Shown here: positions 2,913 through 7,509 of the stretch, piece by piece
Numbering within the stretch: the first letter of the stretch is position 1
Layout: the number at the start of each line of letters is the position of its first letter
IMG/VR virus record: IMGVR_UViG_2541047739_000007
DNA length: 32,653 bases
Origin: a virus
Taxonomy: Duplodnaviria > Heunggongvirae > Uroviricota > Caudoviricetes
Reading direction: 5' to 3' (one strand)
Made by a program: the position numbers and the translations under genes
The notes under the pieces: model-generated
Told to the model about the DNA's origin: nothing
The model's input: the letters and a program-made list of their open reading frames with translations, nothing else
Databases searched by the model: none

Positions 2913-2967
2913 GGTGATGCTGCCAACTTACTGATTTAGTGTATGATGGTGTTTTTGAGGTGCTCCA

Positions 2968-3243
2968 GTGGCTTCTGTTTCTATCAGCTGTCCCTCCTGT
3001 TCAGCTACTGACGGGGTGGTGCGTAACGGCAAAAGCACCGCCGGACATCAGCGCTATCTCTGCTCTCACTGCCGTAAAACATGGCAACTGCAGTTCACTT
3101 ACACCGCTTCTCAACCCGGTACGCACCAGAAAATCATTGATATGGCCATGAATGGCGTTGGATGCCGGGCAACAGCCCGCATTATGGGCGTTGGCCTCAA
3201 CACGATTTTACGTCACTTAAAAAACTCAGGCCGCAGTCGGTAA
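2968..3243 (+). CDS. insA: IS1 InsA (transposition inhibitor / N-terminal part of transposase)
   Basis: 91-aa [46 protein letters not shown]... recognised as IS1 InsA. Confidence 0.95.
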
Positions 3244-3665
3244 CCTCGCGCATACAGCCGGGCAGTGACGTCATCGTCTGCGCGGAAATGGACGAACAGT
3301 GGGGCTATGTCGGGGCTAAATCGCGCCAGCGCTGGCTGTTTTACGCGTATGACAGGCTCCGGAAGACGGTTGTTGCGCACGTATTCGGTGAACGCACTAT
3401 GGCGACGCTGGGGCGTCTTATGAGCCTGCTGTCACCCTTTGACGTGGTGATATGGATGACGGATGGCTGGCCGCTGTATGAATCCCGCCTGAAGGGAAAG
3501 CTGCACGTAATCAGCAAGCGATATACGCAGCGAATTGAGCGGCATAACCTGAATCTGAGGCAGCACCTGGCACGGCTGGGACGGAAGTCGCTGTCGTTCT
3601 CAAAATCGGTGGAGCTGCATGACAAAGTCATCGGGCATTATCTGAACATAAAACACTATCAATAA
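3162..3665 (+). CDS. insB: IS1 InsB reading frame (expressed as InsAB' transposase via -1 frameshift at A6C, 3219-3225)
   Basis: 167-aa frame ...[28 protein letters not shown]... recognised as IS1 InsB; TTAAAAAAC slippery run present. Confidence 0.95.
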
Positions 3666-3680
3666 GTTGGAGTCATTACC

Positions 3681-3689
3681 ACGGAACGC
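3681..3689. repeat. IS1 target-site duplication, right copy (ACGGAACGC)
   Basis: Identical to 2904..2912. Confidence 0.9.
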
Positions 3690-4379: not shown

Positions 4380-4742
4380 TTAACGACCTGCTGCGCGGAG
4401 TTTTCCGTCAGGTTCACCGGCAAGAGTCAGTAATTGTCCCTGGTCTTCCTGCAGAATAGTCAGGCGACCACCGCGATTGACATACATCGGCGTTTCGGTG
4501 GTGTCTTCTTCGGAAATTTTCCCGCGGTTAGTTGGGCGAACATATGAGAGTTTGTGTTTGATTTTCACACGGTTCTCATCAAACGGTTCGATTTCCAGAT
4601 TGAGTGAGACCTTCCCTTTGGTTTTCGTGTTCATCACACCGGAAGCGACCTCACTGAGAACTGCGCCGATTTTGGTTTCAAATACGCCGCCGTCCAGCTC
4701 CCCGATAAATGCCTGCACATCAGTACTGCGTTCGCTAGCCAT
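4380..4742 (-). CDS. Hypothetical phage early protein, 120 aa (resembles CPS-53 YfdP from memory)
   Basis: Start MASERSTDVQAFIGELDGGVF preceded by GAGGAG SD with 7-nt spacer; the longer track ORF starting at 4907 is probably an upstream over-extension. Confidence 0.6.
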   Translation of the reverse strand: MASERSTDVQAFIGELDGGVFETKIGAVLSEVASGVMNTKTKGKVSLNLEIEPFDENRVKIKHKLSYVRPTNRGKISEEDTTETPMYVNRGGRLTILQEDQGQLLTLAGEPDGKLRAAGR

Positions 4743-4791
4743 TTTGCTGCTCCTCATCATATCGACCCTGCAAGGTCGGTTGGTTTCTCCA

Positions 4792-4878
4792 CAAAACAGA
4801 GAAGAACACCTGCGGTGGCAGCCGCCCGGATGGATTGGGTTATGAGCCCGTCGTCCGGTGATGCTCTTCTCTGTTTTG
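4792..4878. repeat. 14-bp perfect inverted repeat (CAAAACAGAGAAGA / TCTTCTCTGTTTTG) flanking a 59-nt GC-rich spacer
   Basis: Arms at 4792-4805 and 4865-4878; the spacer has further local stems (GCGG...CCGC); sits about 50 nt upstream of the 4742 start codon. Confidence 0.6.
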
Positions 4879-4888
4879 CAAAAAAGGA

Positions 4889-4925
4889 CGGTACCAGCCG
4901 GAAGCAAGGGTACAAACTGGTACCG
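4889..4925. promoter_or_regulatory. 9-bp perfect inverted repeat CGGTACCAG / CTGGTACCG with 19-nt loop containing GGTACAAA; candidate leftward operator (oL-like) or RNA hairpin
   Basis: Arms 4889-4897 and 4917-4925; shares the GGTACA core with the palindrome between cI and cro. Confidence 0.4.
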
Positions 4926-5144
4926 CCAGGACTACACACAGCATAAAGTTGTGGTGCCGGGTGCCTCCCGGTGCCTGGCGAAGGTTGCACACCAGGCGGG
5001 TGGGTATCCACAGAAGGTCGACTGTCAGCCTCAACCTTAACCCGCGTGCGCTGAGCCGCATTCACCACAACGCTAAGGATTCTCTCTGGTTGAAAATACT
5101 TAGCTGTTATGTGCCTGCTTTTAGCCACATCAGGCGAGGTGGAC

Positions 5145-5198
5145 CTGGTTATTCCCCAACAACAAGGATTCGGTTAATCTGGATATCCCCAACAACAA
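5145..5198. repeat. Direct repeat pair CTGG(T/A)TAT(T)CCCCAACAACAA
   Basis: TCCCCAACAACAA at 5153-5165 and 5186-5198, 33 bp apart, immediately upstream of the 5215/5238 start. Confidence 0.6.
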
Positions 5199-5214
5199 TA
5201 AGAGTATTCAATGT

Positions 5215-5728
5215 GATCGCTGAATTAACGGCAGCAATGACGGCTATTCGTGAAACAGCCCAGATTGCAAAACTAATGAACGAGGCAAAAACTCAAGCTG
5301 AAGTAAATGCGGCTATTGGTGAGCTGAACTCAAAGCTTGCGTCTATTCAGCGCGAATGCGTGTCTCTCGTTGAACTGGTGGGCTCTTATCAAGAAATAAA
5401 TGCTTCTCTCAAAGCTAAAATTGCAGAATTCGAAAACTTTGAGGCTCAGACGGAAGGCTATATCCTTAACCAACTTGAGTCGGGTACTTTTGTATACTCG
5501 AAGGAGGTAATCGTGAACGGTGGCAGCATAACCATGCATCTTTGCCCAAAATGTTTTGGACAAAAGATAGTATCGATACTTCAACCATTCCCGGTTAGCA
5601 AAGATGAGCTTTTTCATAAAAGCAGGTGCCTCCACTGTGAAAATAAGTTTCTGATGAATAAAAATCCGGATTACGTATCGCCTCCATCCATTGAGGAGTT
5701 GTCCAGAAAACTTAACGGCAATCTGTAG
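5215..5728 (+). CDS. Orphan hypothetical protein: predicted coiled-coil N-terminus and C-terminal CxxC...CxxC zinc-ribbon
   Basis: AT-rich ORF between the leftward early operon and cI, on the opposite strand to both; start uncertain (GTG 5215 or ATG 5238, MTAIRETAQIAKLMNEAK...); CPKCFGQ...17 aa...CLHCENK; own terminator downstream. Confidence 0.5.
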
Positions 5729-5767
5729 ATTGCTACTGTTGTGGATATCCAGATTGTTAAAGAGCTA

Positions 5768-5791
5768 AGCGTCCTGTAGGGCGCTTTTTTG
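5768..5791 (+). terminator. Intrinsic terminator after the orphan gene
   Basis: AGCGTCC-TGTA-GGGCGCT stem-loop followed by TTTTTT. Confidence 0.6.
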
Positions 5792-5904
5792 TTGCTAATG
5801 AATCATCCTAGACTTCATATGCTCCAGGCGGCTACTTCGTGGGCGTCCTGCCTGTTTGTTGTTTCTCTTGGGTACATTATGTATCCCAAAGGCACATTGT
5901 CAAG

Positions 5905-5929
5905 TATAAAAAAACCTGCCGAAGCAGGT
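5905..5929 (-). terminator. Intrinsic terminator of cI (minus strand)
   Basis: ACCTGC-CGAA-GCAGGT hairpin 14 nt after the cI stop, followed on the minus strand by a 7-U run. Confidence 0.7.
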
Positions 5930-5942
5930 TCATAAACATTGA

Positions 5943-6617
5943 TTAGGCTTTGATTTTGTATCTTCTTGGTTTTCCTGAGAAAATCACAGTTCCAATTATA
6001 GAGCAATTACCGTTGATCTTAATGTAAGGCTCAGGCCAGTTTGGGTTTAACGCTTTGAGATAACGCTGTGTCCCATCTTCTATCAACCTTTTGAAGGTGG
6101 TTTCACCTGTATCGTGCATCAATGCAATAACGTCGTCACCGTGGCAGGCAGGTACTTCAGGATCGACAAAAATCATGTCTCCCGGGCGGTACTCATCAAT
6201 CATTGAATCACCTATCACCCGCAAGATATAAGTCATTTCCCCACAGGGTACAGGGCAGGGATACGTTTCTGCTGTGCTCAAATCAACCTCAGAATATCCA
6301 ACTTCTTTCCATGCTCCGGCCTGTACCCATGATATGACAGGGACTAATGTGATTTGTTTATTAGTGATTGAAACATCAGGTTTTTTTGTGATGTTCGTTG
6401 TCTGGTGTTCTTGATCGAGCCATCCGACAGGCAGGTCGAAACATTTTTCGATGTGTCGTGCCATGCTGTCACCGATATTTTTAGTAGCACCATCTCCCAT
6501 AAACCTGCTGGTCTGGGTTGGCTCGCGATCAATCATAGTGGCAAAGGAAGAATTCCCGCCAACACCATCTCTCAGTTTTCTGGCGTTAGACCGCCGGATG
6601 TCATGGATTGTTTTCAT
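5943..6617 (-). CDS. cI: CI-like prophage repressor with C-terminal S24 (LexA-like) self-cleaving peptidase domain
   Basis: 224 aa; C-terminal GDSM serine motif and downstream TFKRL lysine (Ser-Lys dyad); divergent from a cro-like gene. Confidence 0.85.
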   Translation of the reverse strand: MKTIHDIRRSNARKLRDGVGGNSSFATMIDREPTQTSRFMGDGATKNIGDSMARHIEKCFDLPVGWLDQEHQTTNITKKPDVSITNKQITLVPVISWVQAGAWKEVGYSEVDLSTAETYPCPVPCGEMTYILRVIGDSMIDEYRPGDMIFVDPEVPACHGDDVIALMHDTGETTFKRLIEDGTQRYLKALNPNWPEPYIKINGNCSIIGTVIFSGKPRRYKIKA

Positions 6618-6632
6618 AACGAAATTAAAACC

Positions 6633-6653
6633 CTTGTACCGTTAAGGTACAAG
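6633..6653. promoter_or_regulatory. Candidate operator: inverted repeat CTTGTACC-GTTAA-GGTACAAG
   Basis: 8-bp perfect arms with 5-bp spacer in the 90-bp cI/cro divergent region. Confidence 0.55.
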
Positions 6654-6657
6654 TATC

Positions 6658-6685
6658 TTGAAGGTTCATTTCAATCATGTAATAT
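6658..6685 (+). promoter_or_regulatory. Candidate rightward promoter (pR-like): TTGAAG-N16-TAATAT
   Basis: -35/-10 hexamers about 25 nt upstream of the GGAGG SD and cro ATG. Confidence 0.45.
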
Positions 6686-6707
6686 GTATACCGGAGGTAC
6701 ATATTGT

Positions 6708-6908
6708 ATGAAAGCGTATTGGGACTCTTTAACCAAAGAACAGCAGGGCGAGTTGGCCGGAAAAGTTGGCTCAACACCTGGCTACTTACGGCTGGTTTTC
6801 AATGGCTATAAAAAAGCCAGTTTTGTGCTGGCTAAAAAACTTGAGCAATGCACGTCAGGTGCAATTACGAAATCTGACTTAAGACCGGATATCTATCCGA
6901 AAGATTAG
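6708..6908 (+). CDS. cro: Cro-like small HTH regulator
   Basis: 66-aa ORF MKAYWDSLTKEQQGELAGKVGSTPGYLRLVFNG... with GGAGG SD; divergent from cI. Confidence 0.7.
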   Translation: MKAYWDSLTKEQQGELAGKVGSTPGYLRLVFNGYKKASFVLAKKLEQCTSGAITKSDLRPDIYPKD

Positions 6909-6939
6909 CAGAACACTTTCAATTTTTAACCACAGAACG

Positions 6940-7509
6940 ATGAGGCTAATCGTGGGTAAGCATCACTGGAAAATAGAAAAACAGCCTGAGTGGTACGTGA
7001 AAGCTGTCAGAAAAACTATCGCGGCGTTGCCGGGTGGTTACGCTGAAGCGGCTGACTGGCTCGATGTAACAGAAAACGCTTTATTCAACCGCCTTCGTGC
7101 AGATGGCGATCAGATTTTCCCGCTGGGATGGGCAATGGTTTTACAGCGTGCTGGTGGCACTCATTTCATTGCTGATGCTGTGGCGCAGTCTGCAAATGGC
7201 GTCTTTGTGTCTCTTCCTGACGTCGAGGATGTGGACAACGCCGATATTAACCAGCGTCTGCTGGAAGTCATTGAACAGATCGGCAGTTATTCAAAACAGA
7301 TTCGTTCAGCAATCGAAGACGGTGTAGTGGAACCGCATGAGAAGACAGCAATTAACGACGAGCTGTATCTCTCAATTTCGAAGCTGCAGGAGCATGCAGC
7401 ACTTGTCTACAAAATTTTTTGCATTTCAGAAAGTAATGACGCCCGCGAGTGTGCAGCTCCGGGCGTCGTGGCGTCGATTGCTTCTGGTTGTGGAGAAACT
7501 AACGCATGA
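6940..7509 (+). CDS. Putative CII-like / YdaT-like regulatory protein
   Basis: 189-aa ORF directly after cro; alternative GTG start at 6952 has a better SD; family assignment from position and weak motif resemblance only. Confidence 0.4.

Follow-up and report, generated by a model that had tools for sequence, protein, structure and literature searches.

A lambda-like immunity switch of the e14/SfV type with a putative TGTACC-N5-GGTACA operator and a predicted left operator directly past the repressor gene

Our analysis of a 32,653-nucleotide stretch of DNA (the window), which as a whole is a PhiR49_1-like lambdoid prophage, indicates that it carries an e14/SfV-type immunity region working as a bistable switch like that of lambda, in which a CI-type repressor reads the palindrome TGTACC-N5-GGTACA, a reading to which we assign a probability of roughly 85%. 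The window carries the ordinary lysis/lysogeny switch of a very common, e14/SfV-like E. coli prophage type, and the result is of an already known kind, confirming the expected lambdoid design and holding no surprise. The module consists of a cI gene of the ymfK/cohE type, a cro gene (ymfT) and a gene for a CII-like regulator (ymfL type; + strand, 6940..7509; Pfam Phage_CP76, 1.3e-13; phrog_101 CII-like activator, 7e-71), and is the same as that in the immunity regions of e14 (cohE/ymfK, croE/ymfT, ymfL), SfV, SfIV, cdtI, Stx2c-type phages and PhiR49_1. DNA identity amounts to 98-100% when PhiR49_1, SfIV, SfV and the ymfK-ymfT-ymfL segment of e14 are compared with the window, and to 98-99.9% for the phages SfV, SfIV and PhiR49_1; other phages of the e14/SfV type share sequence with the window from about 5846-5860 onward, which marks the left boundary of the module.

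The divergent cI and cro genes are separated by a 90-bp gap (6618-6707) that holds the back-to-back promoters PR and PRM. PRM (- strand, 6625..6653) combines a -35 element TTGTAC (6653-6648) and a -10 element TTTAAT (6630-6625) across 17 nt, with only 6 nt left to the cI ATG and hence a leaderless mRNA; the 'ATT' of its -10 element is positionally conserved in relatives, and the e14 ymfK mRNA has been mapped as leaderless in K-12 (PMC4681348). Between the cI ATG and position 6687, three E. coli loci of the e14 type (L006-L008) do not differ from the window. PR (+ strand, 6658..6685) consists of TTGAAG (6658-6663) and TAATAT (6680-6685) with a 16-nt spacer, and the TTG and the -10 element keep their positions in 31 distinct gap sequences, even though the hexamers agree with consensus in just 8 of 12 positions and fall under the listing threshold of the promoter scan. 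Downstream lies cro (ymfT/croE type; + strand, 6708..6908), an open reading frame for a 66-aa helix-turn-helix protein with weak YdaS/HTH_3 Pfam matches and a match to the transcriptional repressor family phrog_35 (3e-15).

Three operator-like sites are arranged over these promoters. The OR-distal site (6635-6651; TGTACC GTTAA GGTACA) is a perfect palindrome that covers the -35 element and spacer of PRM, with its centre at about -26 of that promoter in the manner of OR3, and it forms the core of the inverted repeat CTTGTACC-GTTAA-GGTACAAG read at 6633-6653, which the first-pass annotation had correctly placed in the cI/cro gap beside TTGAAG-N16-TAATAT. The OR-proximal site (6685-6701; TGTATA CCGGA GGTACA) is OR1-like and covers the PR start and the cro Shine-Dalgarno sequence GGAGG (6693-6697); the GGTACA that had been noticed near the cro Shine-Dalgarno sequence at 6696-6701 is its right half, so that it belongs to a second operator. 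The TGTATA of this site, in place of TGTACA, is a variant common to PhiR49_1 and SfV. Between the two lies a weak OR-middle candidate (6652-6668; AGTATC TTGAA GGTTCA) over the -35 element of PR, OR2-like with its centre at about -43 of PRM. It agrees in 9 of 12 half-site positions here and in 10 of 12 in most enterics (AGTACC..GGTTCA) and in Pseudomonas and Salinicola (AGAACC..GGTACA), and it keeps a fixed 16-17 bp from the distal site in relatives, a conservation that could come in part from the -35 element and spacer of PR.

By chance the window should hold 9.8 copies of GGTACA; it has 19, a count reached in none of 100 shuffles, and TGTACCN5GGTACA with at most two mismatches occurs five times against 0.64 expected (again 0 of 100 shuffles), four of the five lying at the two immunity promoters. 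A position weight matrix trained on other loci only, with the window left out, gave six matches of 8.4 to 22.9 bits, while the next best score in 32.6 kb was 1.1 bits; the distal site is the top match (22.9 bits), followed by the proximal site (17.4 bits), whereas the middle site reaches just 8.4 bits. This is no better than a site inside cI (6236-6252; 10 of 12 positions, 8.8 bits), which we rejected as an extra operator and regard as probably fortuitous because it is present only in near-identical E. coli copies.

Comparison across genera points in the same direction. In a set of 32 loci (three phage and 29 genome loci from about 20 genera, with CI proteins 43-100% identical to that of the window), the half-sites are near-invariant, the spacers are free and the distal and proximal sites stand at a fixed offset. 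The distal site is mostly 12/12 and lies at -34/-35 from the cI ATG in most loci, at -37/-38 in four and at -57 in Amphritea, its spacer carrying 0.2-0.5 bit against 1.4-2.0 bits in the half-sites; the proximal site is found in all 32 loci with 10-12 of 12 positions, its start 50 bp (51 in two) from that of the distal site. When the cI-cro gaps of 23 homologous loci are pooled, no 6-mer is commoner than GGTACA/TGTACC, which turns up 73 times where 2.3 would be expected (31-fold). The half-site proposed earlier for CI thus stands as regards GGTACA/TGTACC, whose palindrome keeps a fixed position in every relative, but the conserved unit is a 6-mer within a site of 17 bp; GGTACAAG has an additional 'AG' that relatives keep on one side only, where it falls on the TTG of the -35 element of PRM. 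None of these operator sites was found in about 6.3 kb of each of the heteroimmune phages SfII, ST64B and mEp460.

Another reading of the repeat at 6633-6653 is that it acts as an RNA hairpin or intrinsic terminator instead of a protein site. The terminator scan lists a minus-strand 8-bp stem with a T-rich tail here, and either strand has a predicted folding energy near -11.5 kcal/mol (z = -4 to -5). Yet the arms are constant over 31 distinct sequences without compensatory substitutions while the loop varies, a pattern typical of protein binding and not of a stem; the T-rich tail is unconserved among relatives, and the same half-sites recur at 6685-6701 and 5860-5896 in imperfect palindromes that would be poor folders. 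Moreover, both the mapped leaderless cI start and the PR start lie downstream of the repeat, which is thus left out of either main transcript, and we consider an RNA role highly unlikely. Extremely unlikely, in our estimate, is that LexA or another host factor, and not a phage protein, binds the palindromes. The prophage is SOS-linked, and the CTGTACC...GGTACAG of the Pseudomonas relatives has a superficial likeness to an SOS box of the form CTGT...ACAG. The gammaproteobacterial LexA box has CTGT and ACAG spaced by 8 bases, however, whereas here they stand 11 bases apart and the sites contain no CTGT-N8-ACAG; the sites also go together with the CI/Cro module in one genus after another, and heteroimmune phages with the same flanking genes lack them. 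In line with phage rather than LexA recognition, e14 sfiC has been reported as outside LexA control (bioRxiv 10.1101/2020.11.19.390815).

On the other side of cI, imperfect copies of this palindrome mark the predicted left operator. PL (- strand, 5876..5903) is a strong leftward promoter with TTGACA (5903-5898), a 16-nt spacer and CATAAT (5881-5876), 11 of 12 positions agreeing with consensus; it lies directly past the cI intrinsic terminator (- strand, 5912..5931), a stem-loop with T-run that is conserved in relatives and corresponds in position to a 'putative rho-independent terminator' of the SfV record, and in enterobacterial relatives it is conserved as ...GGTACAttgtcaag.... OL1 (5880-5896; TGTATC CCAAA GGCACA) falls within the PL spacer and OL2 (5860-5876; TGTTTC TCTTG GGTACA; 15.9 bits) over the edge of the -10 element and the start site, 20 bp from OL1, and the order of cI terminator, -35 element, OL1, -10 element and OL2 is kept in enterobacterial relatives. 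OL1 of this prophage carries a private substitution, T5893C, which hits an invariant base (all relatives have GGTACA) and is a single-base difference from phage PhiR49_1; the stretch was found identical over 76 nt in only one of 565 E. coli genomes, and the site scores 14.3 bits as it stands in the window against 22.2 bits with the T allele.

This pair at 5860-5896 replaces the oL that had been placed at 4889-4925, some 1.7 kb from oR. In favour of that placement, three GGTAC(C/A) hexamers (GGTACC at 4890-4895, GGTACA at 4909-4914 and GGTACC at 4919-4924) crowd within 36 bp of the leftward early region upstream of yfdP, where CI would control a promoter 1.7 kb left of OR. The hexamer starts, however, are 10 and 19 bp apart, with no partner half, no 17-bp architecture and no TGTACC-N5-GGTACA register, the best matrix score is -5.5 bits against 14-23 for the real sites, and no strong promoter adjoins. 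The GGTAC elements are instead the arms and loop of a hairpin (4889-4926; -20.5 kcal/mol, z = -3.7) whose stem of 9-13 bp runs into U6 on the leftward strand and which would form the terminator of an STnc100-like prophage sRNA candidate outside the switch (- strand, 4878..5101). The match to Rfam RF02076 is full-length (40.3 bits, E = 1e-7 to 5e-7) and came from a permissive search, being under the gathering cut-off of 47 bits; an Rfam search of the whole window at gathering thresholds gave no match. The likeness to the STnc100/PasD prophage sRNA family (bioRxiv 10.64898/2026.05.13.724894) extends to structure over the full length, including the terminal hairpin and U-run, and to the prophage context. 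Its distribution argues equally against an operator: the element is retained in the heteroimmune phages SfII and mEp460, whose repressor N-termini and operators are unrelated, and is absent in about 20 of the 29 genome-scan loci sharing the same operator system, while ST64B has a stem of entirely different sequence with a T-run in its place, so that stem and T-run are kept though the sequence is not (the syntenic ST64B stretch gave no STnc100 match at E<=1e-4). We hold an operator at 4889-4925 to be very improbable.

The cI-type gene (ymfK/cohE type; - strand, 5943..6617; 224 aa), annotated as ymfK in E. coli genomes, encodes a predicted N-terminal DNA-binding domain and a C-terminal S24 autopeptidase domain, the latter matched by Pfam Peptidase_S24 (PF00717) at residues 93-212 (E = 1.5e-26) and by structures of the lambda CI C-terminal domain (E = 2e-9). 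Its VQAG, GDSM and FKRL motifs align with A111-G112, S149 and K192 of lambda CI (pviswvQAGaw / vigdSm / ttfKrl against pvfshvQAGmf / vegnSm / ftfKkl), in agreement with the Ser-Lys peptidase domain recognized in the first-pass annotation, and A100, G101 and S138 are invariant across four diverged homologues. SOS induction would thus be expected to proceed by RecA-stimulated self-cleavage of CI at Ala100-Gly101 by a Ser138/Lys176 dyad, with cleavage itself predicted from the aligned residues. The protein is 100% identical to CI of the E. coli loci L006-L008, and for L007 and L008 the location, near 1.19-1.20 Mb, is that of e14 in K-12; e14 cohE is regarded as an SOS-responsive CI-like repressor, sfiC being SOS-inducible (bioRxiv 10.1101/2020.11.19.390815). 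Residues 1-90 had no Pfam helix-turn-helix match, but a profile of 21 CI N-domains matches the N-domain of the phage repressor 5d50_A (2.7e-8) and a 'phage repressor CI' (7nkv; 3e-3), and the repressor families phrog_12107 and phrog_5736 match as well. The first of these structures is Rep of Salmonella phage SPC32H (PDB 5D50), whose homology is confined to the N-terminal 77 residues. SPC32H Rep is not known to carry an S24 domain and is inactivated by an antirepressor. Our full-text search of the accessible literature on CohE, CroE, YmfK and the motif found no binding-site, footprint, ChIP or reporter data for this repressor, which is also outside the scope of the Stx 'hair-trigger' paper.

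The positions of sites and promoters, their conservation and statistics, the CI and Cro homology and the catalytic residues are observed, while the assignment of proteins to individual sites, the sequence in which these fill, activation of PRM and any cooperativity or looping are inferred. We suggest that CI-type dimers recognize the TGTACC-N5-GGTACA palindrome and, by analogy with lambda, that Cro does so too. Repressor on the proximal and middle sites would shut PR, and the middle site, if occupied, may also stimulate PRM; PRM would be shut once surplus CI, or Cro, fills the distal site, and PL would be covered by the two operators 20 bp apart at 5880-5896 and 5860-5876. With their centres 17 bp apart, the middle and distal sites directly adjoin each other, in contrast to the 20-bp OL pair, and lambda-style pairwise cooperativity therefore cannot simply be assumed.

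Because CI and Cro are co-inherited with the sites, the comparison by itself does not tell which protein drives their conservation, and a possible though less favoured reading is that the operators are real but are read mainly by Cro of the ymfT type, or with a site hierarchy other than that of lambda, for example with the distal site as the primary Cro or autorepression site and CI on the proximal site and OL. In 29 of the 32 loci (all but L016, L031 and L032) a Cro homologue (32-100% identity) was extracted 3' of the proximal operator, and the best palindrome lies over PRM instead of PR, unlike the lambda affinity order for CI. Lambda Cro, for its part, prefers OR3. Such a reading would refine our model without contradicting it, as lambdoid CI and Cro both bind the same operators, and two observations count against it: two Morganella loci keep the sites at 10 of 12 positions with no cro homologue extracted directly 3' of the proximal site, and the position of OL makes sense only for repression of PL by the prophage repressor. 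We also considered H-19B CI, whose N-terminus is 41% identical to that of the window CI, as a characterized relative and set it aside; its gap has different repeats with no TGTACC-N5-GGTACA and is thus uninformative on the specificity of the window repressor.

The switch shares with lambda the divergent cI/cro arrangement, a cI mRNA without leader, a three-part OR in which one site is centred near -43 of PRM and another covers the core of that promoter, an OL at PL and a homologous CI C-terminal domain with its Ala-Gly, Ser and Lys residues. In contrast, the operator sequence and the CI N-terminal domain are unrelated to those of lambda, the centre-to-centre spacing is 17 and 33 bp in OR and 20 bp in OL as against 23-24 bp, and OL has two sites about 0.75-0.8 kb from OR, where lambda has three at 2.4 kb. 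The OL of the window lies directly past cI, without the rex genes of lambda, and, again unlike lambda, no N homologue has been reported in this phage group (PMC3851460). Related modules are also present in the Pseudomonas phages LESphi3 and vB_Pae_CF3a and Edwardsiella phage EPP-1, whose CI N-domains are 55-62% identical and whose Cro proteins are homologous; they have the same half-sites at the same 50-51 bp phasing, their CI C-terminal halves being more diverged. Additional genes, such as BrnT in LESphi3, precede the OL-like pairs of the Pseudomonas and Salinicola relatives, which are found 1.6-1.95 kb beyond the start of cI.

Among 5426 complete E. coli genomes, 2131 have a match to the e14/SfV-type module, and the range for this immunity type is 1316-2131 of the 5426 (about a quarter to two fifths). 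It covers e14 of K-12, whose repressor gene is essential, as well as Stx2c, Cdt-I and Shigella serotype-converting phages. With the 17-bp operator consensus and the right position of OL in hand, CI and Cro binding is open to direct test, as are homo-immunity among these phages and the SOS response of the division inhibitor of e14. Two practical corrections follow: the 'oL' at 1.7 kb is the terminator of a candidate sRNA, and OL1 of the window prophage bears a suspicious point mutation.

The site that fits the consensus perfectly overlies the leaderless promoter of the repressor gene itself, abutting a weak site on the -35 element of PR, and the 50-bp phasing is retained from Escherichia to Pseudomonas. 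We regard as rather doubtful the joint reading that the switch is wired unlike that of lambda and that this copy bears a natural operator-down mutation. Were it true, the wiring could involve a different order of occupancy (such as dominant autorepression or a Cro-first shut-off) or the bridging of the two strong sites, and T5893C could make PL leaky, which together with a PL operon broken by an insertion element would be a snapshot of prophage domestication. The PL operon of the window prophage is interrupted by an IS1 insertion.

Elsewhere in the window, the + strand open reading frame at 5213-5728 had no PADLOC match and, in Pfam, only a sub-threshold coiled-coil match (TMF_TATA_bd, E = 0.0026; 18.3 bits, with the cut-off at 29.1). 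SfV, Ayreon, mEp460 and ST64B have an IsrK/C4 antirepressor region further right, which is absent from the window. Two existing records already agree with parts of the layout described here: the GenBank record of SfV marks exactly the span from the distal to the proximal OR site as 'putative operator region', and that of phage Ayreon annotates a 'promoter' at the position matching PL of the window.

The switch in this window is the already known immunity region of e14/SfV type. Reading frames and Pfam domains identify an integrase at 1-1164 on the minus strand, a leftward early operon, the 224-residue repressor CI at 5943-6617 (minus), which has a Peptidase_S24 domain, a 66-residue helix-turn-helix Cro at 6708-6908, a CII/CP76-like protein at 6940-7509, and replication genes. 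Across 5700-7000 the sequence shares 99.9% identity with PhiR49_1 and 98% with SfIV and SfV. The immunity region has a match in 2131 of 5426 complete E. coli genomes (at least 80% query coverage in 1316), and the E. coli genes beneath it are annotated ymfK, ymfT and ymfL, the e14 immunity gene names. PhiR49_1 is collinear with the first 12 kb of the window except for a 768-bp IS1 (2913-3680), missing in PhiR49_1, which is inserted into DUF2303/yfdQ, one of the genes of the leftward early operon, between copies of a 9-bp target duplication (2904-2912 and 3681-3689). In the SfV GenBank record the label 'putative operator region' spans exactly the interval from the distal to the proximal site, and we found no experimental definition of these sites in the searchable literature. 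To the known region the analysis adds the 17-bp consensus, its conservation across genera, a proposed assignment of OL and PL, and a new reading of 4889-4925.

Direct reading of the window located every sequence element listed in the first-pass annotation, each at the coordinates given there. GGTACA occurs 19 times against 9.8 expected, and TGTACC-N5-GGTACA with up to two mismatches matches five times against 0.64 expected, a count reached by none of 100 shuffles; the matches start at 5860, 5880, 6236, 6635 (perfect) and 6685. The N-terminal 86 residues of CI are 62% identical to those of Edwardsiella phage EPP-1, 55-59% to those of Pseudomonas phages such as CF3a and LESphi3, and 41% to those of H-19B. 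The cI-cro gaps of EPP-1, CF3a and LESphi3 hold both of the window's elements in the same orientation: a distal TGTACC-N5-(G/T/A)GTACA adjoining the PR -35, and a proximal TGTAyn-N5-GGTACA over the cro Shine-Dalgarno sequence. Scanning one genome per species added 29 loci from about 20 genera (CI identity 43-100%), and both sites are present in 32 of 32 loci with starts 50 bp apart (51 in two). Motif discovery among loci with homologous repressors, a 6-mer count with no preset pattern, ranks GGTACA/TGTACC first in the gaps (73 versus 2.3 expected, 23 loci). This core of the half-site proposed earlier stands, but the 8-mer GGTACAAG is too long: its AAG flank is kept only on the right, where the complement is the TTG of the PRM -35. 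Across the 32 loci the information content is 1.4-2.0 bits at half-site positions and 0.2-0.5 bit in the 5-bp spacer; arms that do not vary, a centre that varies freely and the lack of compensatory substitutions indicate a palindrome bound by protein rather than an RNA stem. A position weight matrix trained on 62 sites, all from other loci, scores highest in the window at 6635 (22.9 bits), 6685 (17.4), 5860 (15.9) and 5880 (14.3), and reaches only 1.1 bits outside the immunity module. A further match within the cI coding sequence (6236-6252, TTTCCC CACAG GGTACA, 10/12, 8.8 bits) is confined to E. coli copies that are nearly identical to the window, and is probably a chance match.

Between the distal (6635-6651) and proximal (6685-6701) sites, and adjoining the former, lies a middle site, AGTATC TTGAA GGTTCA (6652-6668, 9/12). 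It scores 8.4 bits, no better than the match at 6236, and we call it probable because its position is conserved: most enterics have AGTACC..GGTTCA and the Pseudomonas and Salinicola loci AGAACC..GGTACA (10/12 each). The predicted PR, TTGAAG (6658-6663)-16-TAATAT (6680-6685) on the plus strand, matches the consensus at only 8 of 12 positions and is therefore missing from the promoter scan; its TTG and -10 are conserved in position among relatives. PRM, TTGTAC (6653-6648)-17-TTTAAT (6630-6625) on the minus strand, ends 6 nt from the cI ATG, an interval without a Shine-Dalgarno sequence. By differential RNA-seq in K-12, ymfK of e14 is among five leaderless E. coli mRNAs (PMC4681348), and the E. 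coli e14-type loci (L006-L008) equal the window exactly from the cI ATG through 6687. Relative to the leaderless cI start, the distal, middle and proximal sites are centred at about -26, -43 and -76, the middle one matching the position of OR2 at lambda PRM. On the PR side, the proximal site lies over the start point and the middle site over the -35.

A terminator stem-loop (5931-5912, minus) directly follows the cI stop. The strongest promoter-like site of the region, the putative PL (TTGACA-16-CATAAT, 5903-5876, minus, 11/12), has OL1 (TGTATC CCAAA GGCACA, 5880-5896) in its spacer and OL2 (TGTTTC TCTTG GGTACA, 5860-5876) over its start. The predicted OL thus lies 0.75-0.8 kb from OR. Enterobacterial relatives keep the layout ...GGTACAttaTGTAyCnnnnnGGTACAttgtcaag..., the first site often at 12/12, and homology to other e14/SfV-type phages starts around 5846-5860, where the immunity module has its left edge. 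At the corresponding positions the SfV record annotates a terminator and the Ayreon record a promoter. The sole base difference from PhiR49_1 over 5700-7000, T5893C, turns the invariant OL1 half-site GGTACA into GGCACA and lowers its score by 7.9 bits (22.2 with T, 14.3 with C); among 565 E. coli genomes that have this OL, just one agrees with the window throughout a 76-nt stretch. T5893C may be a mutation that weakens the operator, or an error in base calling.

The earlier placement of oL at 4889-4925, some 1.7 kb from OR, does not hold: the 17-bp register is absent and the best matrix score is -5.5 bits. There CGGTACCAG pairs with CTGGTACCG in a hairpin (-20.5 kcal/mol, z=-3.7) followed by U6 on the leftward strand. 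A permissive Rfam search finds a full-length match to STnc100 (RF02076) at 4878-5101 (minus), with an E-value of about 1e-7 to 5e-7 and a score of 40.3 bits that falls short of the 47-bit cut-off; the hairpin corresponds to the last stem of this model. STnc100, an sRNA associated with prophages, has PasD as a relative (bioRxiv 10.64898/2026.05.13.724894). The element does not follow the repressor, as three comparisons show. SfII and mEp460 have repressors that resemble CI in the S24 domain alone; both retain the element at 97% identity, and their gaps have TTGCGC-type repeats and no TGTACC-N5-GGTACA. About 20 of the 29 genome-scan loci with the same operators lack it. The ST64B stem, GTCGGCGTC/GACGCCGAC then TTTTT, preserves the structure and loses the GGTAC motifs. 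Judged by the refuting condition that the first-pass annotation set for itself, this oL placement fails. An STnc100-like match recurs in SfV and SfII (39.5 bits), and the syntenic ST64B stretch has none at E<=1e-4. In the stretch from the sRNA-like terminator to where yfdP begins, 4792-4878 (minus) forms a long, nearly perfect hairpin with 24-nt arms, almost unchanged in sequence even in ST64B; the entire leader 4743-5000 folds at z=-5.8. In phages of SfV/SfIV type, where an N homologue is reportedly missing (PMC3851460), PL transcripts would have to get past the terminator-like hairpin.

The predicted operator and promoter layout supports a lambda-like logic, in which CI on the proximal and middle sites would block PR, CI on OL1 and OL2 would block PL, the middle site would be positioned for RNA polymerase contact at PRM, and occupancy of the distal site would shut PRM. 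Unlike in lambda, PRM carries the perfect site, the distal site directly adjoins the middle one, and OL comprises two sites 20 bp apart; occupancy order and any cooperativity are inferred. A homologous Cro is present in 29 of the 32 loci, so the comparison has no power to tell whether CI or Cro reads the sites. The CI C-terminal domain aligns with that of lambda CI, with VQAG at the A111-G112 cleavage site, GDSM at Ser149 and FKRL at Lys192. In e14, an SOS-inducible, LexA-independent division inhibitor is thought to be controlled by cohE (bioRxiv 10.1101/2020.11.19.390815), which is essential in K-12 strains carrying e14. From these residues and this literature, CI autocleavage on induction is expected.

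Related phages carry IsrK and C4 antisense RNA above Rfam thresholds: SfV (4564-4752 of its locus), Ayreon (4514-4702), ST64B (5732-5920) and mEp460 (5675-5863). On the cro side, these RNAs map about 1.2-1.4 kb downstream from where cI starts, within or close to a CDS labelled 'immunity region' in the SfV and Ayreon records, and the arrangement looks like P1/P7 immI-like antirepressor control. At gathering thresholds neither RNA is found in the whole window, so this second immunity layer is absent there. Just left of PL and convergent with it, ORF 5213-5728 (plus; phrog_1244) has a C-terminal CxxC...CxxC; PADLOC gives no match and Pfam only a sub-threshold coiled-coil match. Its flanks (5153-5198, 5737-5755) hold a 19-nt inverted repeat (5176-5194/5737-5755) and a direct repeat TCCCCAACAACAA at 5153 and 5186, and a terminator belonging to the ORF lies at 5767-5786. 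At this position SfV carries another gene in opposite orientation, and the region looks like an exchangeable moron slot.
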